Shown here: piece by piece, positions 18,788 through 41,481 of the stretch
Numbering within the stretch: position 1 is the stretch's first letter
How the letters are laid out: each line of letters starts with the position of its first letter
From: a virus
Lineage: Duplodnaviria; Caudoviricetes
IMG/VR virus record: IMGVR_UViG_3300014204_005796
Location: 42,710 to 106,709 of that record
DNA: 64,000 nucleotides
Direction: 5' to 3' (one strand)
The notes under the pieces: model-generated
The model's input: the letters and a program-made list of their open reading frames with translations, nothing else
Databases searched by the model: none
What the model was told of the DNA's origin: nothing
Translations under genes and position numbers: made by a program

Positions 18788-19670
18788 GCCCTGGTTCGCG
18801 TAATTCCGCCAACCTTTTTTGTATAAGTGGCGCTATTATATCAGCCACCCTGCCTACGGGCAACTCCGGCTGCTTTGTATTAAATGTATTACTAAGAAAA
18901 TCCGCATACTCCTGTTGGAAAGTTTTGTCATGTAGAGCCCAAAAGTCTGCTACGCGCTCTAGGGACTCTATTACAGGATCATTCACGGCGGTTATTGTGG
19001 TTCCCTCCCAGTATAAAGCAAAATCATCTCCTTCGAGGTCTACCGGCGATAGTATAGTTACGCCAGTGTTCCCTTCCGTATCTATATACACAGGTACCGG
19101 ATACGCTGGGTCGGCTTCGGACAATAATTTGAATATATTCTTCATGATTTGGATACTAATCTGTCTGCTTTGTTCCTCTGCGGCCTTTTTTGTTTCTGCA
19201 TCGAAATCTTTTTTGTATTCACGCTTAAGTATCCCCACGATCTTTTTAACAACGTCGTATGTATACCACGTACCTTCTAACCATACTCCGGTAATCATAC
19301 CCTTATCCACTAATACGACAGTGTTTGAGTTTTCATATCTGGAAGGATAATCTGTTAATTCAAGGGATGGTATGAGTATTTCATATGTGAAATAAAAACC
19401 CTCGTGGGAATAAATAGCTTGGCTTTTGTCAAGGTGATCCGGGTACGTTTTTGTCACGGTTACTTGGTCTTCTACCCAGCGCGTCTTTGTAATCCATTTA
19501 GGCATCCATATACTCTTTCCGGAAGTCGTTACATATTTACCAACGTCTTCTGTATATTTTTCGTTGTCCCCGAACCCAGTGCCGCCAGAATACAATGTGA
19601 TAGTTTGGCTCATCCCAAAGCAACTGCATGTAGTTAATACCAACGCTATTAATAGAATTATCTTTTTCAT
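18777..19670 (-). CDS. Secreted or lipoprotein-like protein
   Basis: N-terminal signal peptide MKKIILLIALVLTTCSC. Confidence 0.65.
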   Translation of the reverse strand: MKKIILLIALVLTTCSCFGMSQTITLYSGGTGFGDNEKYTEDVGKYVTTSGKSIWMPKWITKTRWVEDQVTVTKTYPDHLDKSQAIYSHEGFYFTYEILIPSLELTDYPSRYENSNTVVLVDKGMITGVWLEGTWYTYDVVKKIVGILKREYKKDFDAETKKAAEEQSRQISIQIMKNIFKLLSEADPAYPVPVYIDTEGNTGVTILSPVDLEGDDFALYWEGTTITAVNDPVIESLERVADFWALHDKTFQQEYADFLSNTFNTKQPELPVGRVADIIAPLIQKRLAELREPGLDK

Positions 19671-19888
19671 TTTGATGCCTCCTTAATATTTGATATTATC
19701 ATCTCACATATTACTAATAATGACTGCCGTATATCTTCTAGCTCTTTCCTGTCCTTCTCACTTAAATCCATTTCAAAGCCGGCGTAGAACAGCTCAAGTT
19801 CGTCAAGGAAATTTCTGCTACGTATCATCTCCTCTCTGGTGCCTTTCCATATTTCCATGAGCCTCTCTTTACTCAACGGGTAAGCCAT
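19667..19888 (-). CDS. Hypothetical protein
   Basis: Coupled ORF with SD. Confidence 0.6.
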   Translation of the reverse strand: MAYPLSKERLMEIWKGTREEMIRSRNFLDELELFYAGFEMDLSEKDRKELEDIRQSLLVICEMIISNIKEASK

Positions 19889-19937
19889 TTTCTTTCACCT
19901 TTTTGGGATAAGCCAACATCGGTTTCGTGATGTTCAT
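19869..19937 (-). pseudogene. N-terminal stub resembling a DNA ligase start (MNITKPMLA)
   Basis: AGGAGG SD, 22 aa; KPMLA matches the intact ligase N-terminus MEKILKPMLA. Confidence 0.35.
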
Positions 19938-19951
19938 GATTGAACCTCCTA

Positions 19952-20176
19952 TTAGTTTGTAACTGGTTTCTGAAATAACCTTACAACTATCTTGCGTGTA
20001 CTTTCAAACTTTTTCTGCCAGTCTAAGATAAGTCTGGCCTGTGTGTCAACTGCTTGTTCCAAAGCGCAGTAGTTTCTAACGAAAGTTTCCGGGTCATGCT
20101 TTATCAGTGTTCTTAGCTCCACAGAGTCATAACGCTTAAATACCGGAGCCGTTTTGCTTCTCGCCATGTTCATCAC
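19952..20176 (-). CDS. Hypothetical protein
   Basis: ORF in operon. Confidence 0.6.
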   Translation of the reverse strand: MMNMARSKTAPVFKRYDSVELRTLIKHDPETFVRNYCALEQAVDTQARLILDWQKKFESTRKIVVRLFQKPVTN

Positions 20177-20436
20177 CCGCCTTCAGTTGTTTTAGTACCT
20201 GTGAACTTTGGTACTGAATAACTTTTGTCTCATACAGAGATAAATGTATCTTAATTCTGCCGCCTATTTTTAATATAGGCCGGGGAGTTTTACATGTCTT
20301 ACACGTGCATAATTCCAAAGTAATCTATTAGAGACCTCCTTTGTCGCGGTGCAGAGCCTTCCATATAAGTACGCCTGCTCCCACCACATAAAGCCCCAGC
20401 ACAAACCAGTGTATTATCGTCATAAGTCACCTCCTC

Positions 20437-20889
20437 TTAAAGATTCATGGTAAAGTTCCACGCTTTAAGCTCCCTGCGAAATACCAGAATTAAACGGGCG
20501 TCTTTTTTGAGACGGTACGTTTCTTTAACCAAAGCTTTTTTAAGTGTATTAAACTCTTTAATGGCTTTGGCATCCTTCGCCCAGTACTTGTCTATCTCGC
20601 GAAAGGTTATTGCTGGCAGGGTACTGTCTGCAGATTTTTCGTGGTCAAATATGTTTATGGCGCAGTACGCCGCCAGAGGATTCTTCATATAGTTTTCCAA
20701 CAGTAACACCGCCGTGCTGGTTGCTATGTCAACCAGGTTCACCGCAATAATCAGAGTGTTATCGCGTTTATCTATGTAAGTATCATTCTCGAGTCCGGTG
20801 AACTCCGGAAACGCCAATGGAAGTAACTGCGGCGTCATTGTCAATGACGGACGATTAGTCAGCATTTTACAAGCTTCTTCGGCGTTCAT
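20437..20889 (-). CDS. Hypothetical protein, SxxxFxxE-motif family
   Basis: IATSTAVLLLEN; GGAGGTGACTTATG leader. Confidence 0.75.
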   Translation of the reverse strand: MNAEEACKMLTNRPSLTMTPQLLPLAFPEFTGLENDTYIDKRDNTLIIAVNLVDIATSTAVLLLENYMKNPLAAYCAINIFDHEKSADSTLPAITFREIDKYWAKDAKAIKEFNTLKKALVKETYRLKKDARLILVFRRELKAWNFTMNL

Positions 20890-20892
20890 AAG

Positions 20893-21285
20893 TCACCTCC
20901 TCTTTTTCCAGTCTTCTATAATGTTCCACCAGTCATCGCGGGTCATGTCCCTCCAAGTGTCATGCCCCCGCTTGCCCCACAGAACTCTAAAAGACGTATA
21001 TCCTTCTTCAGGATTTGGGTCACCATAATAACATATTCTGCATAAATTTGTGCTCTGTCTATACCCTTTTGGATTTTCAAGACAGATAAGAACACTGTGT
21101 GACCCATCGCCAGTCATGGCTGCAGGTAATTCGTCGACAGCTAACTTCTGTATCGCAAAGATAAGCGTCGTGGTTGACATCTTCCGCGCCGTCTCATTCA
21201 TATGCCATACCCTAGCGTACTCCCAAGAAGGGTACTCTGCTTTGTAGTTTCTTGGGTTCAGCTTGTGCGACGCCACATTCTGCAT
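20893..21285 (-). CDS. Hypothetical protein, SxxxFxxE-motif family
   Basis: MSTTTLIFAIQK; GAGGTGACTTATG leader. Confidence 0.75.
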   Translation of the reverse strand: MQNVASHKLNPRNYKAEYPSWEYARVWHMNETARKMSTTTLIFAIQKLAVDELPAAMTGDGSHSVLICLENPKGYRQSTNLCRICYYGDPNPEEGYTSFRVLWGKRGHDTWRDMTRDDWWNIIEDWKKRR

Positions 21286-21307
21286 AAGTCACCTCGCGTT
21301 GTAAAGT

Positions 21308-21336: not shown

Positions 21337-21367
21337 CAAGTATTTTCAAGGTTTAACGGAAACGTTC

Positions 21368-21726: not shown

Positions 21727-21737
21727 GTTATTCCTCC

Positions 21738-22178: not shown

Positions 22179-22608
22179 GGCCGTTCACCATCCTGTAAGG
22201 TTTTAGTACATCCTCAAGCTGTTCAATGCTGAGGACATACTTTCCTTTCTTTACTTCCTCGACACGCCACAGCGTTGTGGAAAAGTTATTCGCCTTTGGG
22301 TCGGCGCTGCGCGGGAGAAGAACCCATTGTCCTTTGCGGTTTAAGGCTAATACTCCGTTGCCCGTGTCAACTCCTAAGCTCACGCCGTCTCTTACATAGG
22401 CTTCCTCATCAATACCGGCGAACACACTTCCTCTTACGCAGAACTCTTTTAGCACAAACAACTTCGCCGCCATGCTCAAGGCTCTCCACGCAACCACCTT
22501 GCGCTGTCTTATACGGGCGACCCAACCTTTCAATTGGAGGAACTCGTTGCGGTAGAGTACGGAAGCGGGATTATCAAAGCGCTTCATCATCTTCCAGGAA
22601 TAATACAT
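22132..22608 (-). CDS. Hypothetical protein (weak motif variant)
   Basis: LSMAAKLFVLKE; GGAGGTGA SD. Confidence 0.7.
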   Translation of the reverse strand: MYYSWKMMKRFDNPASVLYRNEFLQLKGWVARIRQRKVVAWRALSMAAKLFVLKEFCVRGSVFAGIDEEAYVRDGVSLGVDTGNGVLALNRKGQWVLLPRSADPKANNFSTTLWRVEEVKKGKYVLSIEQLEDVLKPYRMVNGHEQTIGEVPEVKTGT

Positions 22609-22612
22609 TAGG

Positions 22613-23029
22613 TCACCTCCTGTTTAGTGCAAATAGAATTAGCTCTAATGCTTCAGCTGAACTTAGGTACATAGAGGTAGTGGTAATACTCTGCCTAACG
22701 CACTTCCTATTTTCCACAGAGAAGCCTGCGAATTGAAGAAACTTACTGTCACAATACCAACGACCCTCCACGTCCCAACCCATCCAGTCAAAATATTCCC
22801 AATCGGCACTGATAAGGTCTTTCTTAGACTTTGACTTTCCAAAGACGATGTAGCAAAAAGCGCCCTTGGATATTAACGAAGCTTCATTCAACACTTTCTC
22901 ACAAGCAAACAGCAAAGAAGAAGGCGCGAGGTTCTTAGCCCTCCCATGGTCAAGTTCCATAATACGCGTGACCATATCGGGGCCTAAACCTCTTGGTCTT
23001 TTGAACAGCCCATCGTATTTTTCATACAT
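22613..23029 (-). CDS. Hypothetical protein, SxxxFxxE-motif family; paralog of 23034-23450
   Basis: LAPSSLLFACEK; MxEKYxGLF start, EGxWY, C-terminal LSxAEAxE. Confidence 0.8.
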   Translation of the reverse strand: MYEKYDGLFKRPRGLGPDMVTRIMELDHGRAKNLAPSSLLFACEKVLNEASLISKGAFCYIVFGKSKSKKDLISADWEYFDWMGWDVEGRWYCDSKFLQFAGFSVENRKCVRQSITTTSMYLSSAEALELILFALNRR

Positions 23030-23033
23030 GGAG

Positions 23034-23450
23034 TCACCTCCTTATGATATATTGGATTACCTCTGACGCTTCAGCCTGAGACAGGCGCAGAGTACTGTCT
23101 GAATAGTCTTTATCTGCAGGCTTTCTTCCTTCCACGGTAAGTCCCGCTTCTTCTATAATCTGTTTCGCCGCGTACCACACACCCTCGGCATTGATGTAAC
23201 CGACCCACGCGGCATAGGAATACTCTGTACCTTTCGGTGGTAACTTCGCCACCATCCAGGTATATTTTCCTCCGTACGCCAAAGCCTGTTCCTTTACGGC
23301 TTCAATGCAGGCGAACATCAAAGAGGAAGGCGCGAGCAACTTCGCTTTTTCTTTATCAAGCATTAGCTTGTTTCCTGTATAGGAGTGTTCCCATGAACCA
23401 CGCTTGCGTCGTGCCTGCGTTATGAACAGCCCTTCATACTTTTCGTGCAT
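23034..23450 (-). CDS. Hypothetical protein, SxxxFxxE-motif family; paralog of 22613-23029
   Basis: LAPSSLMFACIE. Confidence 0.8.
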   Translation of the reverse strand: MHEKYEGLFITQARRKRGSWEHSYTGNKLMLDKEKAKLLAPSSLMFACIEAVKEQALAYGGKYTWMVAKLPPKGTEYSYAAWVGYINAEGVWYAAKQIIEEAGLTVEGRKPADKDYSDSTLRLSQAEASEVIQYIIRR

Positions 23451-23453
23451 AAG

Positions 23454-23684
23454 TCACCTCGGCATTGTGGGGTCTACAGGGTTGAACGACTCTGCCCCAA
23501 GCTCCACTATCTCAAAAGATACAAGCTCGCACTCGCCCTTCTTAATTATATGCGAGTAGTTCCTAAAGCAAGGACGGCTCTGGTAAACCTTCCCCTTCTT
23601 GTTAAACTTATTATCCTTTCCATAAGTAGGGGCAAAGAATAACCCGTCAGCCTTTCTTCTTATCTTGTAGAACTTGTTCGCCAT
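23454..23684 (-). CDS. Hypothetical protein
   Basis: GAGGTGA SD before ATG 23684. Confidence 0.65.
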   Translation of the reverse strand: MANKFYKIRRKADGLFFAPTYGKDNKFNKKGKVYQSRPCFRNYSHIIKKGECELVSFEIVELGAESFNPVDPTMPR

Positions 23685-23689
23685 AGCGT

Positions 23690-23962
23690 TCACCTCTTTT
23701 TCTGTGTGTTGTCCGGCACGATTGCAAAGTCCTGTGAAGTCCACGAGCAGTACAGGAAGTTGTGTTCTTTAAGACCCACAGTAGGCTCACCGCCCATCTC
23801 CCTTAACTCGTCCACCGTGCAGACCTCACCTTTCTTTATCCTGTCTCCCTTACCACACGGGTTGCCACACGTGTTATAAGGAATGTTCCTGATTGCCTTT
23901 ACCTTATTGCCCACCTGTATCACCGCCCCGTTGTAGTCGATAGCTTCCGTATGATTATCCAT
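23690..23962 (-). CDS. Small SH3-like beta-barrel protein
   Basis: DYNGAVIQVGNKV...IKKGEVCTV pattern. Confidence 0.55.
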   Translation of the reverse strand: MDNHTEAIDYNGAVIQVGNKVKAIRNIPYNTCGNPCGKGDRIKKGEVCTVDELREMGGEPTVGLKEHNFLYCSWTSQDFAIVPDNTQKKR

Positions 23963-23998
23963 TGTACACCTCCAAAGGTTTTTTGTAAAGCAAAATCT

Positions 23999-24382
23999 TT
24001 ACTCCCATTGTATCACCTTAAAGAAACCTTTCTGGCAGTTCTCAACGGCGTAAGCGTGAGCCTTTGACTCCGTGTCAAACGTCATTGTGCCGTCTCCGCT
24101 CCCGAACTCATCCCGCGCCATGACCGCGTTGAAGTACCCGCCTGACCGTTCCACTATAATGAACAGCCCTTTCTTATCCTGTGCGATAGTGGTTTTCTGT
24201 CCGCAGATAAGACACTCGTGCTTAATGCTCGGCACGGTATTTTCACAGCCCGTGCAGTACTCGGTCGTGCCTTTGCCCTTCGTTAACTCCGCGTATAATT
24301 CTACTGCCCTCCCCATACCGTCCTGTTCGTATGCCGTCTGTACCCTTGCCCTAAGTAACGCCGTGCTTATTGGTTTTCTCAT
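23999..24382 (-). CDS. Zn-ribbon-containing hypothetical protein
   Basis: CTGC...CLIC. Confidence 0.65.
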   Translation of the reverse strand: MRKPISTALLRARVQTAYEQDGMGRAVELYAELTKGKGTTEYCTGCENTVPSIKHECLICGQKTTIAQDKKGLFIIVERSGGYFNAVMARDEFGSGDGTMTFDTESKAHAYAVENCQKGFFKVIQWE

Positions 24383-24394
24383 GACCTACACCTC

Positions 24395-24664
24395 CTATAT
24401 GGTTTTGTCGAACACATGAAACTGTTCGTTTATCATCTTATCACTTGCCCCCGCGTAGTCATACGCCGTAGGGAACTCAATAAGCCCGCCCTCACTTACT
24501 CCGCAGAAGCAACCGAAGTAAGTTCCGCCCTTACCCTTGACCTCTCCGTCCGTGGTGACGTTCACTTCCTCTTTGAAGCGTTTCTCCAGCCTGTCCGTAA
24601 TTTCCTTGAAGGACGACACGTTCTCAACCAGGCAGTTGTCTGAGTCATGCTTTAACTTTTTCAT
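24395..24664 (-). CDS. Hypothetical protein
   Basis: ORF with GGAGG SD. Confidence 0.65.
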   Translation of the reverse strand: MKKLKHDSDNCLVENVSSFKEITDRLEKRFKEEVNVTTDGEVKGKGGTYFGCFCGVSEGGLIEFPTAYDYAGASDKMINEQFHVFDKTI

Positions 24665-24825
24665 GGTAGAACCTCCCCGCTAATTGTTTTGTCCGCACGT
24701 TCTGTGTCTTACGTGAGCCGTCATTCCAGCGTACCTTCAACCACCCATGTCCCGACTTAACCACGTGCGCCCCCATTGCCCCACAGGGCGTTTGCACATC
24801 CACCCATTGTCCTTTTTTAATCATG

Positions 24826-25365
24826 TTAAGCCACCTCCGCTTCGCCAATAACTACCTCGACCTTGTGCTTAAACATCTTACGTTTCACACCAAACTCCGG
24901 CAGGGTAAACTCTTTGCCAAGTTTGGTGTCAATGATACGCTTGAAGTTGCAATCCACATCACCGAGCCACTCGTCCACCCATTCCTCAGCGTACTCCATA
25001 GCCCGTGCCAAAGCGTCCTTCTTGTCGAAGCCAATAACGTAGTCGGTATCACGGGAGTCATAAGCGGGTTCGTACCCTTCGTCTTTCTTACGGAGAACGC
25101 CCACGCAGAAGTTGACTTCCCATACAGACAGGAACTTAAAGAGCGACAGCGGGTACTCGCAATCCTCCGCCGTTTCGGTAGTAGTCTTGCCGTCCTGTTC
25201 ACCGCAGTTATACAACGTGACTCTCGCCTTTACCATTTCCTTATTATCTGTGAGTCCTATCTTATCCGCCTTCACCGAGTACCCGTTCAATCTGTGGTAA
25301 CCATTGGCATAGTACTCGTAGTCCTCAATGGCTTTCTTAACCTTTGCTCTCTGTTGTTTGGTCAT
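24826..25365 (-). CDS. Hypothetical protein
   Basis: ORF with GGAGGTG SD. Confidence 0.7.
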   Translation of the reverse strand: MTKQQRAKVKKAIEDYEYYANGYHRLNGYSVKADKIGLTDNKEMVKARVTLYNCGEQDGKTTTETAEDCEYPLSLFKFLSVWEVNFCVGVLRKKDEGYEPAYDSRDTDYVIGFDKKDALARAMEYAEEWVDEWLGDVDCNFKRIIDTKLGKEFTLPEFGVKRKMFKHKVEVVIGEAEVA

Positions 25366-25783
25366 GTCCGCACCTCCACCTTTTTTGATTGGCTTCCCAT
25401 ATTCCGTACACCCACGCCTTTAACTTCGTGGTGTCACAGTAAAACGTGTCGCTGTCCGTTCCCTTCCCGTCACGTATGTAAATCCTTCTGCACTCATAAG
25501 GAGACTCCCGCGACCCTACAGTAAAAGGCTGACGAAATACCACCTTATTAAACCACGTACCCCTCATCATAAGGTCGTAGTCATTGAAGGGTTCAAGGTG
25601 AAGGGTAAAGTTATTCTTTGGACTTTCTATCCTGGAAAAGTCCTCCGTCATGCTCTCTATAATGAACCACAGGGTAGAGAACGCCATTGCCTTACCCTTC
25701 TCCGTTACGTACCAGTCCCCACCCCGCCCCATGAGCAGATACGGGTGGTACTTATTCGCCTTCTTCTGCTTCAAGGTCGCCAT
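25337..25783 (-). CDS. Hypothetical protein, SxxxFxxE-motif family
   Basis: MAFSTLWFIIES. Confidence 0.75.
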   Translation of the reverse strand: MATLKQKKANKYHPYLLMGRGGDWYVTEKGKAMAFSTLWFIIESMTEDFSRIESPKNNFTLHLEPFNDYDLMMRGTWFNKVVFRQPFTVGSRESPYECRRIYIRDGKGTDSDTFYCDTTKLKAWVYGIWEANQKRWRCGHDQTTESKG

Positions 25784-25796
25784 GATTTACACCCCC

Positions 25797-26138
25797 TTAT
25801 CTGAATTTGCGGATAGCCTTTCTTAACTGCCGTGCCGTCTGTTGATACTCCTTAATGTAAGACTTCAATTGCGCAATACGAGTCATCACCTCATTAAGGG
25901 CAGGCTCAACCTCTGCCCTTGCTTTCGCATACCGCTCTTTCCTGTACCCCAGCACCTCCTCTTTGTTTAACCCTCGCCACTCTTTAGCGTAAGCGTTCAT
26001 CGTGGCTTGGTTTCGCTTGCCATAGGCTATTTGCTTTGAGTAGTCCGTATCAGGGCGAAGCTCTATAATAGGCATGAGCTTTGCCGTGGGAATATCCACC
26101 ACTCTTAACTCACTTCTTATCTTCTTAGGTATCAGCAT
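25797..26138 (-). CDS. Coiled-coil hypothetical protein
   Basis: AAGGAGGTG SD before MLIPKK. Confidence 0.65.
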   Translation of the reverse strand: MLIPKKIRSELRVVDIPTAKLMPIIELRPDTDYSKQIAYGKRNQATMNAYAKEWRGLNKEEVLGYRKERYAKARAEVEPALNEVMTRIAQLKSYIKEYQQTARQLRKAIRKFR

Positions 26139-26603
26139 AGTACACCTCCTTCGGCTTGTGTCCAAGCCCTATTATGTTCTATTTTGAACCTATCACCAAA
26201 AATACTTCCCCATACTCTACCTGATAGTACCATAATGGAACGTATTGATTACCCCTCTATGCCAGTTTTCCGGCACTGTTTCATAATAGAACACTATATG
26301 CAGACTTATGAAGAATAAGCTAACCCACTCATAGACAGAATACGCCCCATGTTAGCACGTGAGAGTATACGGATAGGGAGTATAAACACAGGGGTAAAGA
26401 GAGAATTAGCCCCAAATAGGCGTTCACGTTCCATAATTCCCACGATTTCGCACAGTTCCAATCAGAGGTTAGCCTCGACTCTCCCAACCTTCAGGCGACC
26501 CGTGTTCATGGGAACCGCCAAATTTTTGGCAGACCAGGGGAATATCGCTCCTTGGAACAGCTGGGAACATGGGCTTCCGGCATGCGCCCGTGAGCTTAGG
26601 CGC

Positions 26604-27113
26604 CTACTTCTCCTCCCGGTACAGGTCCTTCTCGCTGGGTATAGAGTTATAGACAGACTGCTCCCTTGCTTTCCGGCGAGCTTCCGTCCGGCTCTGTATC
26701 CAGGGAGAGCTATACGTAGGCCCCCGGTGGAACGTCGCGGCCTGGGGAGTGCCCACAGCGACAAGCACCTCTCTGACCCGGGAGTATCTCTTGCGGCCCC
26801 CGGGAATCATTACGGGCCGGGGCTCCCAGGCAATCTCCTGGAACATGTCCATGAGCTTCTCGGCTGCCGCGGGGAGCATGGTCATGGCGCAGGACTGACA
26901 AAGGTTCTTCCTTACCTCAACCTGGCGCCTGAATCCCTGGGACTCAACCACCTTAGGCGCCTTCTTTACCGCGGCGCAGAGTGAGCCCTTAGGTATGCCC
27001 TGGCCGCACCCATGACAATGGCGCGTGGTCTTAGCTCGCTCCAGGGTCACGTTTTGCAGGTGCTTGGGATGGAACGCCGGGATGATGCGTCCTTGTGGAG
27101 AGTTAATAGTCAT
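26604..27113 (-). CDS. PARP-type zinc-finger-like protein
   Basis: ERAKTTRHCHGCGQGIPKG...CQSC. Confidence 0.55.
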   Translation of the reverse strand: MTINSPQGRIIPAFHPKHLQNVTLERAKTTRHCHGCGQGIPKGSLCAAVKKAPKVVESQGFRRQVEVRKNLCQSCAMTMLPAAAEKLMDMFQEIAWEPRPVMIPGGRKRYSRVREVLVAVGTPQAATFHRGPTYSSPWIQSRTEARRKAREQSVYNSIPSEKDLYREEK

Positions 27114-27231
27114 GTTGGCCTCCTTCTTGAGTTAGTCACACGTTCACCGCGAACTTACTGTGGGTTTTACTGTACGGAACTACAGGGCAGATTGTGGTGA
27201 ACCTATAACCTCTTTAACCAGAGTTTGAGTT

Positions 27232-28112: not shown

Positions 28113-28146
28113 GGCTGCCTCCTTGTGGGTAGTACAGCTACCCAGT

Positions 28147-28620: not shown

Positions 28621-28628
28621 GTTGCCTC

Positions 28629-29228: not shown

Positions 29229-29229
29229 A

Positions 29230-29463: not shown

Positions 29464-29464
29464 G

Positions 29465-30938: not shown

Positions 30939-30958
30939 ACCATCACCTCCATGTGAGT

Positions 30959-31975: not shown

Positions 31976-32011
31976 GATTCATCACCTCGTTTCAGATTGT
32001 GATACGTGGAG

Positions 32012-33100: not shown

Positions 33101-33101
33101 G

Positions 33102-33347
33102 TTACTTCACCTCCTTATATTTAATCTTACCTATCTTTATAACCTTGCCAGCAAGTACTGTGCCGTTGCCTATCACCTCGCCTGTCCACCTGTCCGTGAG
33201 CGAAACCTCTTTCGGATCAAACATATCCAGCTGAACGTTGATGCCATGCGACTCAAGAAGACTCTGATGCACGCATCGCCCGTCAGCAATGACTGTACCT
33301 GCGCCTCCTGCGACAAACTCAGCAGGTGTAATCTTATACTTTTTCAT
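33102..33347 (-). CDS. Hypothetical protein
   Basis: ORF in operon. Confidence 0.65.
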   Translation of the reverse strand: MKKYKITPAEFVAGGAGTVIADGRCVHQSLLESHGINVQLDMFDPKEVSLTDRWTGEVIGNGTVLAGKVIKIGKIKYKEVK

Positions 33348-34314
33348 GTGCCTCCGCCTCCTTTTGCGCCAACGTATCCCGCATTACTTTCTCTATCTCT
33401 TCGTAGTTTATGCGCCCCCACTGATACTCCAGATTAAACACCCTCTTTGCTTTCAGCTGAATCTTAGAAGGGAACGCCTGTGCCTGCAGCCATGCGGCAA
33501 GTTCCTTGTGTGCTACTGCGCTCATCTGTACCGTTACTCTGTATTTACCTACGCAGACTGCCGTCCAATTAGCTAGGTTTAACGTAACTGTATTCTGCTT
33601 AATATGTATGTTATTAGTAAACCGAACAGCTATACTTGTGCCGATTTGTAACTGGTTGTGCTCGGACGTTTCCTTGAGTGTGTCCGATGAAAATATCTTC
33701 TCGGCAAGAGTAGGTGTGATGAATATATCAGTTGTTCTACCTAAGTCAAAAGGAATAATCATATCCCATTCTTTTGCCGTGTATTCCTTTACGTCCTTGA
33801 CGAAGCGGTCAAGTTTGTACTGTACTGAGTTCATGTAGAATGAAGCAAGTCTGAGCTTGCTGTCGTTGGTACGCCCGCCACCTATGGATAGGACATTCAA
33901 CTGCTCATAATTCCCCGCTATCTCTTTTATCTTTGCCTTGACCTTTGAAGCCACGTCGGTGTGCATGAACTTGTCAAGAGCCTGCACCCTCTTTAACGCC
34001 TTATCCAAAAGCATGCGCGATGTTTCAAGGTCAAGAAGCTTCTGTGTGTACGTCGGGGAGTTTGTCTCGGCGTAGTACAGAAGAAAGCCGAGCATCTCGT
34101 CAGGGCGTGCGCCGTAGAAGAATGGTGTTACGTTATCTCTCTCGTTCCACTCCAAGTGTTCTACTGCCTTGTACTGTTGTACGAGCCCACCATATAGTAC
34201 ATCGAGCTCTGTATCAGGGGACAGGAACAAAGGCCACATCTGTCCGCAGGTCTCACCTACTTTGTACCCGCCCCGCAGACTTTCTACCGCCATAAGTATC
34301 GACGATGCATTCAT
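33334..34314 (-). CDS. Paralog family member with shared N-terminal domain
   Basis: MNASSILMAVES...FLSPDTELDVLYGGL...YYAETNSP. Confidence 0.8.
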   Translation of the reverse strand: MNASSILMAVESLRGGYKVGETCGQMWPLFLSPDTELDVLYGGLVQQYKAVEHLEWNERDNVTPFFYGARPDEMLGFLLYYAETNSPTYTQKLLDLETSRMLLDKALKRVQALDKFMHTDVASKVKAKIKEIAGNYEQLNVLSIGGGRTNDSKLRLASFYMNSVQYKLDRFVKDVKEYTAKEWDMIIPFDLGRTTDIFITPTLAEKIFSSDTLKETSEHNQLQIGTSIAVRFTNNIHIKQNTVTLNLANWTAVCVGKYRVTVQMSAVAHKELAAWLQAQAFPSKIQLKAKRVFNLEYQWGRINYEEIEKVMRDTLAQKEAEAHEKV

Positions 34315-34327
34315 GTTACATCACCTC

Positions 34328-34630
34328 CTATAGAGTTACTTTAAGTTTGGGATTCTTTACGTCCTGAAGAGTAACCTTGTTTGTCGCTGCGCTCACGTCA
34401 TAATCCTTTTCGGGGTCGTAGCACTCTTCGCACACAGAGAAGTACTTGTGTGTGTATACCACAGCGTCCCCTGCTACTCTCTTACCGCACCCGCCATCGC
34501 ACTTGCAAGTAGCTTTAGCCTTCACGACAGCAGACTTTACTACTGCGTACAACAGCTCGCCGAACTTCATTAACATAACATCTTCTTGGTACTGTGTGAC
34601 AGTTGACTTCTTTAACTCTTTTCCTTTCAT
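34328..34630 (-). CDS. Zn-finger protein
   Basis: CKCDGGCG...CEEC. Confidence 0.6.
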   Translation of the reverse strand: MKGKELKKSTVTQYQEDVMLMKFGELLYAVVKSAVVKAKATCKCDGGCGKRVAGDAVVYTHKYFSVCEECYDPEKDYDVSAATNKVTLQDVKNPKLKVTL

Positions 34631-34839
34631 TGTATCACCTCAGTTAAGAACGCAGATGACTGCACTCCGATTAGGGATATTCACGTTGACATATCCTTCG
34701 TACTTGGTAAACTTCTTTCCCTGTCCGCATACCTCATTGAGCCGCGCCGCCTTGAGAGCGTACTTAATCTCATCATCTATATCCGCAGGATTGACGTACA
34801 CATACGTTGGAAGCTCTTTCTTTCTTTTTGTCTGCCATG

Positions 34840-35166
34840 TTAGCACCTCGCTAAGGCCATAATGGCCAAGAATGCACAAGCTAGCTTCGTATAAAAGAAA
34901 GCCCAGCCTATCCAAGGCAACCACGCAGGGAACCTGAACGCATTCTTGCCTTTCTTTTCCTGTTCACGTACGTACCGCTGTAGCAACAGAGTCTGCCATA
35001 GATACTGAAGCAGACTCACCGCAAGTATCAGCAACCCATAGTGGACGTACACGGGCTTGCCTACCAGCGTGCCGAGTATGAACAGAAGCCCTGCGAACAC
35101 ATGCACCAGATACGACGCCTTGCTTGAGTAGTAATCTACGCTTTCCCATGCCTTTTGAATTTTCAT
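34840..35166 (-). CDS. Membrane protein
   Basis: Three hydrophobic segments. Confidence 0.65.
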   Translation of the reverse strand: MKIQKAWESVDYYSSKASYLVHVFAGLLFILGTLVGKPVYVHYGLLILAVSLLQYLWQTLLLQRYVREQEKKGKNAFRFPAWLPWIGWAFFYTKLACAFLAIMALARC

Positions 35167-35186
35167 CTCTGTGTTACCTCCTTTCA

Positions 35187-35681
35187 CTATTCGAATCTCG
35201 GCCTAAAGGCCGGTTTTTGAGAATCGCTGCCATCGCTGGTGCTCTGGGCTTCTTCATACGCCCCGCCTTTGGCTGTCAACATACTGAAGCCTTTAGCAGT
35301 CCGCTTCTTCATCATGTTAAGGATAGCGTGTACACGACCCACAGATATGTCCTTGGTCGTGTACTTCTTCCTGTCAACACGTGTCTTTAACTTCCACCCT
35401 GTCTGCGGGTCTTTCCACAGTTCACGCATGTTAGCGTTCCACGATGTGTAAACAGGAATGATGTAGGGCACGGGGTTCTGATACGGTTGCTTAATAGCAT
35501 TGTGGTGGTCATAGAACTGCTCAAGCCCAAGTACCAGAGAGGATACAGCCATGGTCTTTAGGGCACCAAGGTATATCTTGCCCATATAAGTCTTGCCCTC
35601 TCTCTTGATGACTCCTGAGTCAAAGCCAATAGCATGCTGGTCTATTACTGAGTCCTGCTGTTCCTGCTCAAAGATACTCAT
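35187..35681 (-). CDS. Hypothetical protein, SxxxFxxE-motif family
   Basis: MAVSSLVLGLEQ. Confidence 0.75.
   Translation of the reverse strand: MSIFEQEQQDSVIDQHAIGFDSGVIKREGKTYMGKIYLGALKTMAVSSLVLGLEQFYDHHNAIKQPYQNPVPYIIPVYTSWNANMRELWKDPQTGWKLKTRVDRKKYTTKDISVGRVHAILNMMKKRTAKGFSMLTAKGGAYEEAQSTSDGSDSQKPAFRPRFE
35206..35231. repeat. Dispersed oriented repeat, copy 4
   Basis: aaggccggtttttgagaatcgctgcc. Confidence 0.65.
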
Positions 35682-35851
35682 CTCATCACCTCCCTGTTAT
35701 GTGTATGCGCAACAGTATATCAAGTATCCTGCTGCGTGTAGGTATGTTGCGTTCTAACCATAACCAGTGCTTAGGCTTTAATCTAAGCACGTACAACACA
35801 AAGAACCTGTCCACTTTGATAATAAACCATGCTAGTTTGCGTATCATCTCA

Positions 35852-36196
35852 TCACCTCGCGTATGTTACGTCGAACGTCAGGCGTAACGTGTTAGGTTTC
35901 CGTGCATGGCTGTACTTAAGCACAAGTTCCTTTGACTCTGTCCTGTGCATGTCGCTGGTCTTCAGGCATATCCTGTTGATGACTATACCGAACTCCAAAA
36001 GCTTCACGCAGTGGTCTTCCTTGTCCTTGTCTATCTCTACAGCCTTCTCAATGATGAAGCACATCACCGACGGTGAAACCTTTGCGTTCATCATCACGTC
36101 GATGTGGTTGCTGTTCGGACGTGATGTCACCGTAACTCCTGCGACTCCTGCCAGACCTGTCTCTCTTAACAACCTCTCGCCAATAGTCTCGGGCAT
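35852..36196 (-). CDS. Hypothetical protein, SxxxFxxE-motif family
   Basis: VSPSVMCFIIEK. Confidence 0.75.
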   Translation of the reverse strand: MPETIGERLLRETGLAGVAGVTVTSRPNSNHIDVMMNAKVSPSVMCFIIEKAVEIDKDKEDHCVKLLEFGIVINRICLKTSDMHRTESKELVLKYSHARKPNTLRLTFDVTYAR

Positions 36197-36198
36197 GG

Positions 36199-36579
36199 CT
36201 ACGCCTCCTTCCAGTTTATATATTCATCTTTCCTGTGTCCACCTATTACCTTAACGATGTAGTCTGCATGGTCGTCCACAAAGAACTCAATACGGCAGTT
36301 CCTAAGCTCAGGGCACTTTGTAAGTATCTGTTCGCCTAACATCCTGTACGTTGATGACGCCATGGCAGTCTTAGGGTACACTACCACCCAGAAGAACTCT
36401 TCTGTGTTGCCCACGCCTTGAATGTTTGACGCAATCTGGTATCTATGCGTAAAGTTGTGCTCAAGTTCAACCTGTACATCCTCGTATGAGACCAGAGCCA
36501 GCTGAGCAATTTGCTCAGCCAGCTTGCCAACGAGGGACAGTTCTCGATTAAGTTCCTCAATGTCCCTGTTAGTTTTCAT
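36199..36579 (-). CDS. Hypothetical protein, SxxxFxxE-motif family (variant)
   Basis: MASSTYRMLGEQ; ATGA-coupled to the vWA gene. Confidence 0.7.
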   Translation of the reverse strand: MKTNRDIEELNRELSLVGKLAEQIAQLALVSYEDVQVELEHNFTHRYQIASNIQGVGNTEEFFWVVVYPKTAMASSTYRMLGEQILTKCPELRNCRIEFFVDDHADYIVKVIGGHRKDEYINWKEA

Positions 36580-37922
36580 TTTGTTTTCTCCTCCACTTCC
36601 ATTGTGTCAGGATTTATCTGCACGTTAATCCACGGCTTACGTGCATTGTCATTGTGCACAAGGTTGTGTGTCGTGAACACAACCATGATTGAATCCTTTG
36701 GCCCAGCAGTCACGTCAGGTATCTCACCGTCAGTGAGTAGGACAAAGTTCGTCTTAACGTTACGCTCTTTCTCTTCTATGTCCTGAAACATCTGGAGCAT
36801 GGGATTCAAGTCAGTGCCCCCGAGACCTGGAACGAACTTGGGAATCTCTTCCCCTTTCTTAACGATGTGCTTAATCTCAGTGTCGCAGTACACGACTGCT
36901 TCGAACTGAGGAAGCGCCATGACGTACCCGAGGAAGCCTTCAACATACTGGTCGCAGGAACCTGAGCAGTCAATACCCACATATATCTTGAACTCTTCTG
37001 TTCTCTTACGGGGAATGTAAGTCTTGATTCCCTGTATGTGGATACGCCTGTTAGGTCTGTCGAACCTGCTCTTCTTCCTGTATATCATCGGGTCAAGCAC
37101 TTCTTTAAACGGGAACTGCCTGCGTACGATGTCCATAAGCTTCCTTACGAACGCACCCGTTACTGAACCGTACTGCTCGTTCTTGGCAGCCTTCTGCATC
37201 TGGTCAAGTACCTGCTTGATTTCCCCGTCCATGTTCTTGGGGTCAAGCGAGTTGTCATGCTCGTCTATCCTGTTGCCATTGAGCTTGTCAGCCAGTTCGT
37301 CACCGCCAACGGGCGTTTTTCCAGAACCGCTGCCACCGCTGGCCACCAGCGTGTATTTCTTCCCCGACTTCATTGACTTCTCAAACAACGCATATATCTC
37401 ATCAGCTGTTAAGTCATCAACGTCTTTGCTTGTCTCGATGACCCCGTCTGCTTTCAGGCTCTCGACTGTGATGCCGATAGTCCTGCCGTCCTGCACCGGC
37501 ATCTCGACTGCACTTGAGTAGTACTTGTTCAGCAGGGAGTTAATCATTGCGTCAATCGCAATGTTCCACACACGCGGGTCATCAAACCGTGTTGACTCAC
37601 CACAGTTGTGTGAGAGCAGGATGTGTCCCGCTTCATGTGCAATGATGTACATCTGCTGACGCACTGAGAACTGATGAAGCTTCGAGAGAGCCAACGCCAT
37701 GAACAACTTGCGCGGGTCTTCAGGATGTGCCTCATCCCTCTTCGTGCCAACACACGCAAGGAACTCATCCTTCGGGTCTTTGGGTATGTACTCCTGCATT
37801 GTAATCAGCAAGAGTATTTCCATGAAGAAGCGAAGCTCTGAGTTGTTAGCGAAGTGTTCCATAGGCAAGGCGTCTCTGACTGCGTCGCCTGACTTTGCCT
37901 TCAGATGGTCTCTTAGTTCCAT
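36576..37922 (-). CDS. HExxH metallopeptidase-like + vWA domain protein (DUF2201-type)
   Basis: HEAGH, WNIAIDAMIN, MIDAS DCSGS, GGTD, TDG. Confidence 0.88.
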   Translation of the reverse strand: MELRDHLKAKSGDAVRDALPMEHFANNSELRFFMEILLLITMQEYIPKDPKDEFLACVGTKRDEAHPEDPRKLFMALALSKLHQFSVRQQMYIIAHEAGHILLSHNCGESTRFDDPRVWNIAIDAMINSLLNKYYSSAVEMPVQDGRTIGITVESLKADGVIETSKDVDDLTADEIYALFEKSMKSGKKYTLVASGGSGSGKTPVGGDELADKLNGNRIDEHDNSLDPKNMDGEIKQVLDQMQKAAKNEQYGSVTGAFVRKLMDIVRRQFPFKEVLDPMIYRKKSRFDRPNRRIHIQGIKTYIPRKRTEEFKIYVGIDCSGSCDQYVEGFLGYVMALPQFEAVVYCDTEIKHIVKKGEEIPKFVPGLGGTDLNPMLQMFQDIEEKERNVKTNFVLLTDGEIPDVTAGPKDSIMVVFTTHNLVHNDNARKPWINVQINPDTMEVEEKTK

Positions 37923-37941
37923 GACTGTGCTCCTTTCGTAT

Positions 37942-37961
37942 GGGGCAGGTTGCCCTGCCCC
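37942..37961 (-). other. Intergenic GC hairpin between the MoxR and vWA genes
   Basis: GGGGCAGG-GCAA-CCTGCCCC; no U-tract. Confidence 0.6.
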
Positions 37962-37976
37962 GCGGATTTGTTTCTC

Positions 37977-39128
37977 TTACTTGGTCTTCGAAGGCGCCTT
38001 GCTTATCTCTTCCTTCATAAGTGTGTCGAAGTACTTGGACAACTTCTGACCCTTGCACGAGCACTTGTCAAACACCATCGGCTGACGTGCACCGAACTGA
38101 CGCATGAAGCTCGTGACAACTTCCACGGTCTTCTCTGTGTCAACCAGCTTGTCAATGAACTTTTCCATTGACTTCTGGAGTTCTGCCCTGTCCTCTTCCT
38201 TGGTCAGTATCATTCCCGCAGGGAGCACGATATCCAGAACGTCATTGAGTGCCTGTTTCTTTTTCAGTGGGTTGTTATTGTTCTTCGTGTACTGTGCCCA
38301 CGCCTTCTGCTTCAAGTCCCACAGGTCTGTAGGATTGATGATGGCATCGCCTACCCACGACTCCAACAAGACGACCGTAGTCGGTGACAGGATACCCTTG
38401 GCAAGGTTCAGTATCTCTGAAGCGTCATTGACCTCGTCGAACTTCAATGCCTTGACAAGCATGTCAAGCTGTGACCACCCACGCGGGTTAGTCCACGGTT
38501 CGAACGGATGTCCCTTGACAGGCGGAACATAGAACGCCTTCGTGTCATACGCCTTGACGAAGTTCTCAATGAACTTCACAGGCTTCTGGTACGCTATCCA
38601 CTCCGTCACCTCAGGTGTACGCATTCCGTAAATGAATCCCCTGCCTCCTGTCAATGCCGAAGAGAATGCTCTGGCAAACGTGCCGTCCTCCCCGCCCATA
38701 TTACCGCTGAACACAAAGAATGTTTTGGCGGGTAAGTGTTCGTCGTCTATTATCTTCTGCCATACAACGTCGAGCACTGCACCTTGCACGTCTTCAGCCG
38801 CGAGTGTCGCCTCGTCAAAGTGCACGAGTGCTCCCGCTTTCTTTCCTGTGTTGCCTGCGTCGATTGCCCTCTTCCAGAACCACGGTAACTTCCACTTCGT
38901 GTACTCACCGCTCACATCAGGAATGCCCTTGATGTCGTACGGCTCTACACGTCCGAGTGATATCGGAATGTATTCCATGCCCATCTCTGTTGCCGCTTCG
39001 CTGATGGCGAACGACTTGCCGATACCAGGGTCTCCGAAAATCATTACTGTGGGCGGGCATGCTGTAGCACCGAACTGTTTCAAAAGCCTCTTCAATCCTT
39101 CCGCGGTTAACATCTTTAACTGTGCCAT
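37977..39128 (-). CDS. MoxR-type AAA+ ATPase
   Basis: Walker A GDPGIGKS, DIKGIP, Walker B VHFDE, NPRGW; adjacent to its vWA partner. Confidence 0.88.
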   Translation of the reverse strand: MAQLKMLTAEGLKRLLKQFGATACPPTVMIFGDPGIGKSFAISEAATEMGMEYIPISLGRVEPYDIKGIPDVSGEYTKWKLPWFWKRAIDAGNTGKKAGALVHFDEATLAAEDVQGAVLDVVWQKIIDDEHLPAKTFFVFSGNMGGEDGTFARAFSSALTGGRGFIYGMRTPEVTEWIAYQKPVKFIENFVKAYDTKAFYVPPVKGHPFEPWTNPRGWSQLDMLVKALKFDEVNDASEILNLAKGILSPTTVVLLESWVGDAIINPTDLWDLKQKAWAQYTKNNNNPLKKKQALNDVLDIVLPAGMILTKEEDRAELQKSMEKFIDKLVDTEKTVEVVTSFMRQFGARQPMVFDKCSCKGQKLSKYFDTLMKEEISKAPSKTK

Positions 39129-39140
39129 GTCTGTGACCTC

Positions 39141-39401
39141 CTAAATAGATTTGGAAAGAAACAATTCGTAAACTGTTTCTTTCATAAAGTACTTGTGTTT
39201 CATGTAGCACTTGCCGACCTGTCTTACGTACGCTTCCAAGTCAATCTTATTCTGTATCACAACCTGCTCACCTGCGCAGTCAAAGAACATTGCCGCCTGT
39301 ATCTCTGCGGGTGTAACGCGCTGCACAGGAAAGTCAAAGGCTACTGGTATGTCATGACTTGCCTTTTGTATTGCTGCAATCTGATACGGGGTAAGTCTCA
39401 T
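39141..39401 (-). CDS. Hypothetical protein
   Basis: GAGGTGA SD. Confidence 0.65.
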   Translation of the reverse strand: MRLTPYQIAAIQKASHDIPVAFDFPVQRVTPAEIQAAMFFDCAGEQVVIQNKIDLEAYVRQVGKCYMKHKYFMKETVYELFLSKSI

Positions 39402-39646
39402 GCCATCACCTCGGTTATACTGTCAAAATGAATCGTAACTGTATCTTTTCTGATGTCCTGTACTGTTGCCTTTGCCTGTGCGAGTAGCCAGAACTGGTAA
39501 CGCAGGCATGCTCTGTTACGCGCTATCTCTGACTGTACTTCTGAATTTTTGAAGCTCTGCTTTAAGGCTTGCTGTTCCTTGCTTTTCTTTGTGATGTACC
39601 TCTGAATCAAAAGCACTTTTCTCTGGGCGTGTTCCAAGCGTGTCAC
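39398..39646 (-). CDS. Hypothetical protein
   Basis: AAGGAGGTGA SD. Confidence 0.65.
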   Translation of the reverse strand: MTRLEHAQRKVLLIQRYITKKSKEQQALKQSFKNSEVQSEIARNRACLRYQFWLLAQAKATVQDIRKDTVTIHFDSITEVMA

Positions 39647-39786
39647 GTGTCCTCACCTCCTTTTAGTGTGAATAGATTTAGTAACCTGCTATGCAGTATA
39701 ACAGAATGACCGAGCCATACACGAACGCAAAAGCAAGTACTGATACAATGATGTACGCAATCGCCTTGCAAACTCTGTCCTTAAGA

Positions 39787-40062
39787 CTAGGCTTTACAAA
39801 CATAGGATACATATGCACCTCCTTCTTCATTGAATATAAGTAAGTCGTACTTGCCTGCGCCAAGTTCTGTGTTAAGTCTTTCCTTTATTGTGTCCACCTG
39901 CTCATACGTGCCTGACCAACCAAACCAACCGTTTGAATCCTTTTCACCTGTTCCAAACGCGTCCTCTATAATCCTGTAATAGTACTTACGGTTAAATGGT
40001 GCAGGGTCTGTCGTAACGATAGCAATCTTTCTTTTGCCGTTCAAAGGAACATTCTTTATCAT
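39787..40062 (-). CDS. Hypothetical protein
   Basis: GAGGTGA SD. Confidence 0.65.
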   Translation of the reverse strand: MIKNVPLNGKRKIAIVTTDPAPFNRKYYYRIIEDAFGTGEKDSNGWFGWSGTYEQVDTIKERLNTELGAGKYDLLIFNEEGGAYVSYVCKA

Positions 40063-40080
40063 CTCATCACCTCATTTGTT

Positions 40081-40131
40081 GCCCCGACTTCGGACGGGGC
40101 TTGTGGTTTACACGGGGCTATTAACCCCGTG
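40081..40131. other. Two tandem GC-rich hairpins
   Basis: GCCCCG-N8-CGGGGC and CACGGGG-N7-CCCCGTG. Confidence 0.55.
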
Positions 40132-40276
40132 CCGTCACCTCTTAAGCTGTCTTTACTTAACTGTGTAGGACTGCACGCCAGACTTCAGCGCTTCGTCACC
40201 ATAAAGCAATCACTCCTTTCTGCTTAATGCCTGTGCGTGGGTTCTTAGTTGCCCCGCCACAAAGAACAACATAGCC

Positions 40277-40804
40277 TTATTTGTTTGTGTAGACTACAGT
40301 CTGCCCGTTGTAAAGCGCCACGATGTTTGATGTCTTAATGTTCATAACGTCCGTTGCGTGTCCTTTCGGCCCGTACTCCGCATACCACACATCAACCTCT
40401 GCTTCCGTCATAGCCTTATGGTCTGCGTCTTCCGCGCCCATGAACACAGTAGACATAAAGTCTGTGTTCGCCATTTTATACACGCGCAGGTAATGCTCTT
40501 CCTTTGCTGTGTGTTTGAACAGTAACAAGTTACCTGATACAGGTACAGCGTAAGTCTTACCTGCCCTGTCCGAGTTCGGGTCTGCAGGTCCGTCCAGCTT
40601 GCCTGTCTGTACTAATGTCTGATAGTCAACTTTGGATAAGTTAACCACCATTTTACGCAGTACTGTTACGCTGGTCAGGTTTGCAGGTGTGGCAATGCCT
40701 GTCTGCCTGCTCTTCTTTAACGCTTCCTTCGTGCTCGTGTATATGACCGTATACACGCCCGCCTTCGGTAACCCTCCAATGACCTGTTCCACTGTCTCTT
40801 TCAC
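40277..40804 (-). CDS. Hypothetical protein, first gene of the putative early block
   Basis: AGGAGGTG SD before GTG 40804. Confidence 0.7.
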   Translation of the reverse strand: MKETVEQVIGGLPKAGVYTVIYTSTKEALKKSRQTGIATPANLTSVTVLRKMVVNLSKVDYQTLVQTGKLDGPADPNSDRAGKTYAVPVSGNLLLFKHTAKEEHYLRVYKMANTDFMSTVFMGAEDADHKAMTEAEVDVWYAEYGPKGHATDVMNIKTSNIVALYNGQTVVYTNK

Positions 40805-40854
40805 GGTACACCTCCTAATAGTTTGTGGCACGGCTATTGCTTATAGCAGGTCGA

Positions 40855-40868
40855 CCACCACGTGGTGG
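40855..40868. promoter_or_regulatory. Perfect 14-bp palindrome (operator-like)
   Basis: CCACCACGTGGTGG. Confidence 0.4.
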
Positions 40869-41139
40869 CACGTTCCTTGCTTACCGCTTCAGCCGTCGCC
40901 TCGTTCAATCCTCACACTTATCATAGTTTTGATTCGTTGAGGTCATGCGCTGAACAACAAGCCGGGAAGGGGCCCCACTATGTACACACCTGTATTTTTA
41001 AGAACAAATTTTAAGAATTTCGGCCGCCTGTATTTATGAATGTGGTTCCAAAAATTTCCTGGAAAAAATTTTTTTAAGAAATCCTGGCGGATTCACCATA
41101 GAGACGCCAATTATGCCATGCCATACTTCCCACAGAATA

Positions 41140-41167
41140 AGTATACCCCGCTGGCTAAGAATGTCAA
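41140..41167 (-). promoter_or_regulatory. Sigma70-type promoter
   Basis: TTGACA-N16-TATACT. Confidence 0.65.
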
Positions 41168-41481
41168 GACCTATTTTTATGTGGGTTATAAATTTTGAGG
41201 TTGTCTCGGACTATGAAACCAAAAGAAAGGACCCGGTGAACATAAACGGCATAATTCGCAATCATACTTAACGACTAGATTGTTACCGTACGGGCATACT
41301 TATCCCGGGGTTGGGGCGGGACCGTGATCCGTAGGAACGTGATCCGCCAGGTCGTGAAGCGAATAGGCTCCTTAATCGCTTCACGCCGGAGGTCGCTTCA
41401 TGTAGCGGTCGGATATGAGCGCGTAGCGGAGCAGACACCCGGGTAGGGCTCCGCCCGCGAGTGCGCGTTTTAGGGCGTGTT

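Follow-up and report, generated by a model that had tools for sequence, protein, structure and literature searches.

Why should a segment of about 22 kb in the genome of an uncultured tailed phage be almost free of the word GATC, when this word occurs at nearly the expected frequency on both sides of it? The segment lies in the window analyzed here, which consists of the final 64 kb of the 106,709-bp IMG/VR contig IMGVR_UViG_3300014204_005796 (referred to below as G0; window position = contig position - 42,709). An initial annotation of this window had pointed to the scarcity of GATC between 19,440 and 41,325 and had suggested, by analogy with phage T5, that the block enters the cell first, or is exposed before it is protected, and is under selection against a GATC-recognizing host system. 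Region-specific selection against restriction sites in this block is well supported by the analysis described here. The explanation we favor, with a probability of roughly 0.6, is that selection against Type II sites acts more strongly on a conserved block of the early type than on the remainder of the genome, and that this block is perhaps the first part to enter the cell.

GATC avoidance within the block

Computed counts of GATC amount to 32 at positions 1-19439, 3 at positions 19440-41325 and 48 at positions 41326-64000. The three sites remaining in the block (27890, 28637, and 33215) are exactly those named in the initial annotation, and the flank counts made by eye at that time (~30 and ~45) were close to the computed values. 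The number expected in the block is 82 based on the base composition, 62 under a first-order Markov model and 43.6 under a maximum-order Markov model, and the Poisson probability of finding three sites or fewer when 43.6 are expected is 1.7e-15. The flanks are near expectation under the same comparison (32/37.9 on the left and 48/45.1 on the right), so that the block differs clearly from both of them. Its edges are sharp: the nearest sites are located at 18977, 19239, and 19436 on the left and at 41326, 41341, and 41736 on the right. No second stretch of this kind was found in the whole contig, the three longest GATC gaps of which all lie inside the block, and the scan statistic for GATC reached a log-likelihood ratio (LLR) of 25.6, as compared with a simulated null maximum of 13.4. 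The depletion is not genome-wide, since the contig outside the block carries 146 sites where 173.5 are expected (0.84).

Codon usage alone, the simplest way of accounting for such a deficit, does not account for this one. Synonymous-codon shuffles of the block (n = 300) yielded 47.9 +/- 5.5 GATC sites, with a minimum of 35, and shuffles using the codon usage of the flanks yielded 47.7. Sorted by reading frame, the block contains 3, 0, and 0 sites, whereas 18, 5.3, and 24.8 are expected. The choice of codons in the block depends on the neighboring codon: the Ile codon ATC follows a G-ending codon in 0 of 96 cases in the block vs. 80 of 246 elsewhere (p = 5e-14), and the Asp codon GAT precedes a C in 3 of 49 cases vs. 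98 of 287 (p = 2e-5). No neighbor-dependent codon choice at GATC was detected in the left and right flanks. Since ATC is never used after a G-ending codon in the block, it is the site itself which is avoided; codon usage and amino acid composition are ruled out as the cause by the shuffles and by this context-dependent codon choice. The site-level purifying selection is confined to the block. In the arm carrying the virion genes on the plus strand, GATC is depleted only in the frame where GAT forms a codon and C begins the next one, a pattern that suggests an effect at codon boundaries and not avoidance of the site.

GATC is the most under-represented of the 1989 words of 4 to 6 nucleotides in the block (z = -6.1), but other palindromes are also scarce there. 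The ratios to expectation are 0.53 for GGCC, 0.30 for GGWCC, and 0.27 for CTAG, and these words are nearer to or at expectation outside the block. When all 136 classes of 4-mers were scanned along the contig for local depletion (null maxima of ~13 in Poisson simulations), the top words were palindromes and all their depleted stretches were located within the block: GATC (LLR 25.6), CCGG (18.6), and GGCC (10.6); the best non-palindromic word reached 10.7. GTAC, CATG, and ACGT reach or exceed their expected numbers in the G0 block, and a general aversion to palindromes is therefore not the cause. The extended ribosome-binding site GGAGGTGATC was found to be uninformative as a probe of avoidance.

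Related genomes and the ancestry of the block

Two complete IMG/VR genomes of the same clade, G1 (149,961 bp, circle-closing) and G2 (173,362 bp), were the only relatives recovered in the alignment-based scans of IMG/VR. The virion arm is collinear in G0, G1, and G2, and the order of the ligase gene, the block and a conserved downstream cluster is common to all three; the clade is a new group of roughly 150-kb myoviruses. In G1 and G2 the block was set by synteny alone and compared with the rest of the genome. The G1 block contains 12 GTAC sites where 64.6 are expected (0.19), vs. a ratio of 0.77 in the rest (p = 3e-9); of the 136 word classes, none is more strongly depleted locally in this genome than GTAC (LLR 21.7). 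TGCA is also rarer in the G1 block than in the rest (0.60 vs. 0.96, p = 3e-5). In L004, an independent European Nucleotide Archive (ENA) assembly of the same block, 4 GTAC sites were found vs. 23.5 expected. Regional avoidance thus recurs at the syntenic place in a relative, where it affects another word.

Other words are avoided genome-wide in these relatives. In G1, GCGC, TCGA, and CATG are strongly avoided, equally in the block and in the rest, and G2 carries no CCGG at all over its 173-kb genome, block included, although 194 are expected. The blocks are long-term residents, carrying the resident avoidances plus extra ones, as would be expected from stronger selection on one region but not from the random import of foreign modules. 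The protein identities are in line with this. The MoxR-like ATPase, DUF2201, and GP88 proteins of the block show 48-55% identity between G0 and G1, 49-53% between G0 and the phage represented by L001, and 71-74% between G1 and the latter phage; the corresponding values for a fast-evolving scaffold-like gene adjacent to the capsid gene are 45, 50, and 70%. Judging from these identities, the block has co-diverged vertically with the virion arm. The capsid comparison had made the G0 block a candidate divergence outlier; this was rejected, as the less constrained structural gene shows that the capsid protein is saturated.

Closer relatives of G0 were found as fragments. Three block fragments from three samples, in which the ATPase is 85% and 66% identical and DUF2201 73% identical to the G0 proteins, contain no GATC where 16.3 are expected (P = 8e-8, pooled), and 4 GGCC where 17.2 are expected (also pooled). 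Two virion-arm fragments of the same GC class (the GC 0.49 group) carry GATC at the expected level (16/15 and 26/27.7). The selection must have been sustained, because a neutral relic would have regained sites at such divergence. The metagenome scan for relatives yielded chiefly short fragments, and the single-protein scans of IMG/VR with block proteins gave no match. No terminase homolog was more than 67% identical, and no contig of a close relative crosses either edge of the block; the ligase homologs, used as a route to contigs spanning the left edge, gave a best match of 63% and look bacterial. Megablast gave no match to a cultured relative close to G0, and the matches at the protein level are distant, the nearest cultured homolog of the capsid protein being that of Bacillus phage G (39% identity).

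The part of the G1 block located at 140.5-150 kb and 1-3.6 kb consists of a run of genes of roughly 170-350 codons which contain very many CTAG sites (4-11 per gene) and few GATC sites. The homologous regions of L001 and L004 carry ankyrin-repeat proteins, and the G1 genes are a probable paralogous family.

Genes and edges of the block

The G0 contig is classified as linear and, according to CheckV, is 67% complete. Its virion arm, on the plus strand, includes the terminase, portal, major head protein and baseplate genes and ends at window position 7373; the minus-strand arm extends from 7359 to the end of the contig and carries the genes for RtcB, a radical-SAM enzyme, DNA ligase, the block, a glycosyltransferase, an RNA ligase, a DHH phosphoesterase and nine tRNAs. 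The main features are listed in Table 1.

Table 1. Features of the GATC-poor block and its surroundings (window positions)
Feature	Position	Strand	Remarks
ATP-dependent DNA ligase gene	17125..18006	-	Downstream edge of the block in G0, G1, and G2
GATC-poor block	19437..41325	-	~45 tightly packed genes, chiefly small orphans; GC 0.483 vs. 0.443 in the rest of the contig
GGCC-poor sub-block	22292..26291		1 GGCC vs. 13.9 expected; CTAG absent
Site-rich island in the block	26604..30763	-	GC 0.50-0.60; many CCGG and GGCC; 2/3 of the residual GATC; HNH gene
HNH endonuclease-like gene in the island	28147..28719	-	Weak match, E = 1e-4; homolog in the structural arm of G2
GP88-family protein (PF17338)	28629..29228	-	Conserved core gene
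CCGG-poor sub-block	30792..40791		2 CCGG vs. 24.9 expected
DUF2201_N protein (putative metallopeptidase)	36576..37922	-	Partner of the ATPase; conserved core gene
MoxR-like AAA ATPase	37977..39128	-	Conserved core gene of the block
Non-coding region, ~650 bp	40831..41482	-	Upstream (transcription-start) edge of the block; GATC at 41326 and 41341 in its upstream half
A/T-rich palindromic element TTTTTTCCAGGAAATTTTTGG	41048..41068	-	Single copy in the window, downstream of the promoter match
Predicted sigma70-type promoter, near-consensus	41140..41167	-	TTGACA, 16 nt, TATACT; reads into the block; consensus match only
Normal-GATC stretch upstream of the block, 7.6 kb	41326..48935	-	19 GATC vs. 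14.8 expected; no homologs in G1/G2; possibly a later insertion
Second GATC-poor stretch	48936..55057	-	1 GATC vs. 11.9 expected, P = 8e-5; spans the conserved cluster 51164-54689

In G0, G1, and G2 alike, the block is bounded by an unusually long non-coding region at its start and by the DNA ligase gene at its end. The counterparts of the non-coding region are located at 21878-22479 in G1, at 118423-119158 in G2 and at 315-936 in L001. They share a layout in which the A/T palindromic element is followed, in the relatives, by lineage-specific tandem short repeats, an AT-rich stretch and the first gene. The G1 region contains four tandem 49-bp copies of the A/T element and five consensus DnaA boxes with a 9-bp period; G2 has ~40 CTAGAAGCC units and L001 four 11-nt units, with a related A/T element at the same relative place in both. 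This region might function in replication as an origin, mark a packaging or terminus site, or act as a signal resembling an injection stop.

The ribosome-binding sites of the block are of a distinct type. The initial annotation had associated the block with perfect Shine-Dalgarno sites, and 13 of the 16 copies of GGAGGTGA in the contig are indeed located inside it. GGAGGTG precedes 18 of the 45 block genes vs. 6 of the 125 other G0 genes (p = 9e-8), and sites of the GGAGGTG type are enriched in the block in G1 (p = 3e-12) and in G2, where 30 of the 40 genes carrying them belong to the block. The GC content of the block exceeds that of the rest by 1.7-4 points in the three genomes. Since these two properties, which give the block a foreign appearance, are conserved in three genomes, they are regional properties of the clade. 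The density of sigma70-like promoters was rejected as a marker of early genes, as it fails to separate the block from its flanks.

About 40 of the block proteins have no annotation in Pfam or PHROGs, and look-ups of two core orphans in the ESM Atlas gave no usable match. DNA methyltransferases (PF02086, PF01555, and PF00145), TGT and QueC were searched for in G0, G1, and G2, and none was found; self-methylation or a deazaguanine modification shielding the rest of the genome was rejected on these grounds. The genes contained in the site-rich island are probably later arrivals.

Several other observations were made on the block and its surroundings. The genes at 22613-23029 and 23034-23450, in the GGCC-poor sub-block, are tandem paralogs of 138 amino acids showing 35% identity. 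A 46-nt element with the minus-strand core GCCAGCGAATCTCCAAAAACGGCCATAGTCGCT occurs in four copies (12940-12985, 21348-21393, 27221-27266, and 30955-31000), which are placed at gene ends ~20 nt ahead of the ribosome-binding site of the next gene; those at 27.2 and 31.0 kb fall in the region of the CCGG- and GGCC-rich island. A full-length match to the type-P5 twister ribozyme (Rfam RF02684, 50.3 bits vs. a gathering score of 37.6) is present on the minus strand at 40083-40139, that is on the coding strand, in the 215-bp gap separating the first two genes of the block; no counterpart was detected in the block regions searched of G1, G2, L001, and L004. The proteins closest to the DNA ligase in the databases (55-63% identity) include those of Chthoniobacter and Chthoniobacterales (Verrucomicrobiota) assemblies, a resemblance which gives a faint hint as to the possible host or the origin of the gene.

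The nine tRNA genes are located on the minus strand at 55316-63286 (Pro, Arg x2, Cys, Gln, Tyr, Ser x2, and Val). They are interspersed with an HNH endonuclease gene (56895-57623), the RNA ligase gene and the DHH gene (61599-62543), and the latter has 10 GATC sites by itself. The final open reading frame of the contig contains tandem repeats of 12/24 nt (63527-63834) and resembles a repeat-bearing protein encoded at the start of the contig; this array likely explains the break in the assembly.

Explanations for regional avoidance and comparison with known systems

Selection against a GATC-recognizing host system acting on the block only, as the initial annotation proposed, is well supported by the shuffles, the deficit in all three frames, the co-depletion of other palindromes, the avoidance in G1, and the fragments of closer relatives. 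We infer that restriction-modification is the agent, that the block would be exposed earlier than the rest, and that the DNA may enter in stages. Type II enzymes are the best candidates, because the targets are palindromic and vary with the host, and selection limited to one region calls for exposure limited to that region. The block would be a conserved region of the early or host-takeover type, in which the targets avoided would be GATC, with CCGG, GGCC, and GGWCC over parts of it, in G0, and GTAC and TGCA in G1. It may enter first in a polar or staged transfer of the DNA, and its functions could then neutralize some restriction systems. The anatomy fits the pattern of T5 and T7, with a promoter-bearing, repeat-rich non-coding edge followed by ~45 co-oriented small orphan genes having the strongest ribosome-binding sites. 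Counting in the variant in which no staged entry takes place, regional selection in the wider sense is likely.

Several points weigh against this interpretation. The avoidance is patchy, since CCGG and GGCC are missing from different sub-blocks and many sites are found in an island at 26.6-30.8 kb. G0 has a second GATC-poor stretch (48.9-55.1 kb), separated from the block by DNA of normal GATC content; the GTAC-poor zone of G1 extends ~4 kb beyond the non-coding region, and in G2 the regional effect is weak (GATC 0.38 in the block vs. 0.55 in the rest, p = 0.03). The block does not lie at an end of the contig, and the G1 assembly is circular. The large subunit of the terminase matches the Pfam family GpA_ATPase (lambda gpA type, E = 6e-17) in the ATPase domain only. 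The nearest cultured terminases are 22-24% identical. This protein offers a slight hint of fixed genome ends, and nothing in the 121-bp end overlap that closes G1 into a circle marks it as a real terminus. It is equally possible that the non-coding region is a replication origin, and near-consensus sigma70-like promoters are present in the flanks too. Among the block proteins, nearly all of which are orphans, no known anti-restriction protein was recognized.

The main rival explanation is ancestry: the block, or its present allele, may have been recombined in from a related lineage avoiding GATC genome-wide, so that the contrast would be one of origin. The 4-point excess in GC and the distinct ribosome-binding sites of the block are what might be expected in this case, as are its sharp edges, one of which falls at a non-coding repeat region that could serve as a recombination point, and sub-blocks with different avoidance signatures and an HNH-bearing island point to ongoing gene flux. 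The GATC-free fragments are also too short to reveal the composition of the rest of their genomes, and since the fragments of the closer relatives cannot be attributed to individual genomes, some room is left for this explanation. It is nevertheless unlikely: synteny of the block extends to G1 and G2 and the divergence of its proteins parallels that of the structural genes, all three genomes have the higher GC and this type of ribosome-binding site in the block, the blocks carry the avoidances resident in their own genomes (GCGC, TCGA, and CATG in G1, CCGG in G2), and a similar contrast recurs in G1 with another word. In addition, the three block fragments are all GATC-free, whereas both structural-arm fragments of GC 0.49 are GATC-normal. 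A chimeric assembly joining two co-occurring related phages, one of them free of GATC, might be suspected in a metagenome where the GC changes in a step at the block, but an analogous depletion is present in the independently assembled G1 and L004 and the gene order over both edges agrees with that of G1 and G2, making an artifact of this kind extremely improbable.

Selection might also act without any staged entry, if all the DNA entered simultaneously and only cuts in the early block were lethal, through the loss of takeover, anti-restriction or repair functions. A DNA ligase gene directly downstream of the block in three genomes, with RtcB and an RNA ligase in the same arm, would suit such a scheme, which requires no assumption about the genome ends and fits the genome-wide avoidance of some words and the block-only avoidance of others. 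However, an enzyme with a 4-base site would cut the DNA outside the block hundreds of times, and repair so extensive is not known; we find this scheme distinctly unlikely. As regards causes unrelated to restriction, such as selection against GAUC in RNA, effects of Dam, SeqA or MutH, or a compositional bias, GATC is its own reverse complement, so that the strand cannot separate a cause at the RNA level from one at the DNA level, and the block begins at a promoter-bearing region. Nonetheless, the co-depleted palindromes are typical of Type II systems (CCGG, GGCC, and GGWCC; GTAC and TGCA in G1), GTAC, CATG, and ACGT are not depleted in the G0 block, and the avoided word differs between relatives, as host-specific systems predict; causes of this type are very unlikely.

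A more specific form of the favored explanation, stronger selection on a conserved early-type block, can be put forward tentatively, and we regard it as possible rather than probable. The genome would be delivered or exposed in two stages, a pre-early segment of 22-34 kb, from the iteron/DnaA-box region to the ligase gene, surviving restriction unaided and then neutralizing a subset of systems. In this case a strategy like that of T5 would have arisen independently in a lineage of myoviruses, and the avoided words would then read out the host restriction specificities phage by phage.

The phenomenon itself is known; what is new here is the phage clade and the unusually large scale. To our knowledge, experimental proof of position-dependent restriction avoidance exists only for T5-like and T7-like phages, and we know of no survey of site avoidance which does not take whole genomes as the unit; regional avoidance is overlooked in such surveys because genomes are treated as wholes. 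In the present case, a region that may be exposed first could be delimited from sequence alone in a phage clade with no cultured member, with comparative support from a relative in which the same region has been purged of another word. If the explanation is true, it predicts which DNA enters or acts first, it makes the ~45 orphans the place to look for anti-restriction genes, and the predicted host specificities are GATC, CCGG, and GGCC for this phage and GTAC and TGCA for G1. Local depletion of palindromes might provide a general means of scanning metagenomic phage genomes for leading regions.

The comparison with the first-transferred DNA of T5, made in the initial annotation, is borne out by the literature, in which restriction of T5-like phages depends solely on sites in this region; a long non-coding stretch, rich in repeats and containing DnaA boxes, borders it. 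The resemblance would consist of a single segment of small, early-type genes that is sensitive to sites, sites elsewhere being tolerated, and a long repeat-rich non-coding border, which in G1 carries five tandem consensus DnaA boxes, as in the injection stop region of T5. The first-step-transfer DNA of T5, however, makes up 8% of the genome and forms a physical end, within a terminal repeat of roughly 10 kb, whereas the block described here makes up 15-23% of the genome and is internal to the contig, with no terminal repeat visible, and the phage is an unrelated myovirus. No homologs of T5 A1, A2, and dmp were noticed, although no search was aimed at them.

The staphylococcal phage K and T7 avoid GATC over the whole genome, presumably in response to enzymes of the Sau3AI/MboI/DpnII type. 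They resemble the present phage in that GATC has been removed through synonymous changes, and differ from it in that the whole genome is affected, whereas the rest of our contig is at 0.84 of expectation.

In the T7-like Murciavirus, the sensitivity to restriction is set by restriction-modification motifs in the highly variable early region which enters first and not by motifs elsewhere, and host-type promoters at the leading end read inward (PMC12455610). Those phages are 40-kb podoviruses with transcription-driven entry facing a Type I system; here the avoidance is of a multi-site, Type II-like kind, extends over 22-34 kb and is known from the sequence alone. Conjugative plasmids are likewise depleted of restriction targets in the leading, first-entering region, which carries anti-defence genes (cited in PMC12455610). 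They have in common with the block described here an avoidance that is positional and that may, in both, affect first-entering DNA, but they are elements of another kind, which are transferred as a single strand.

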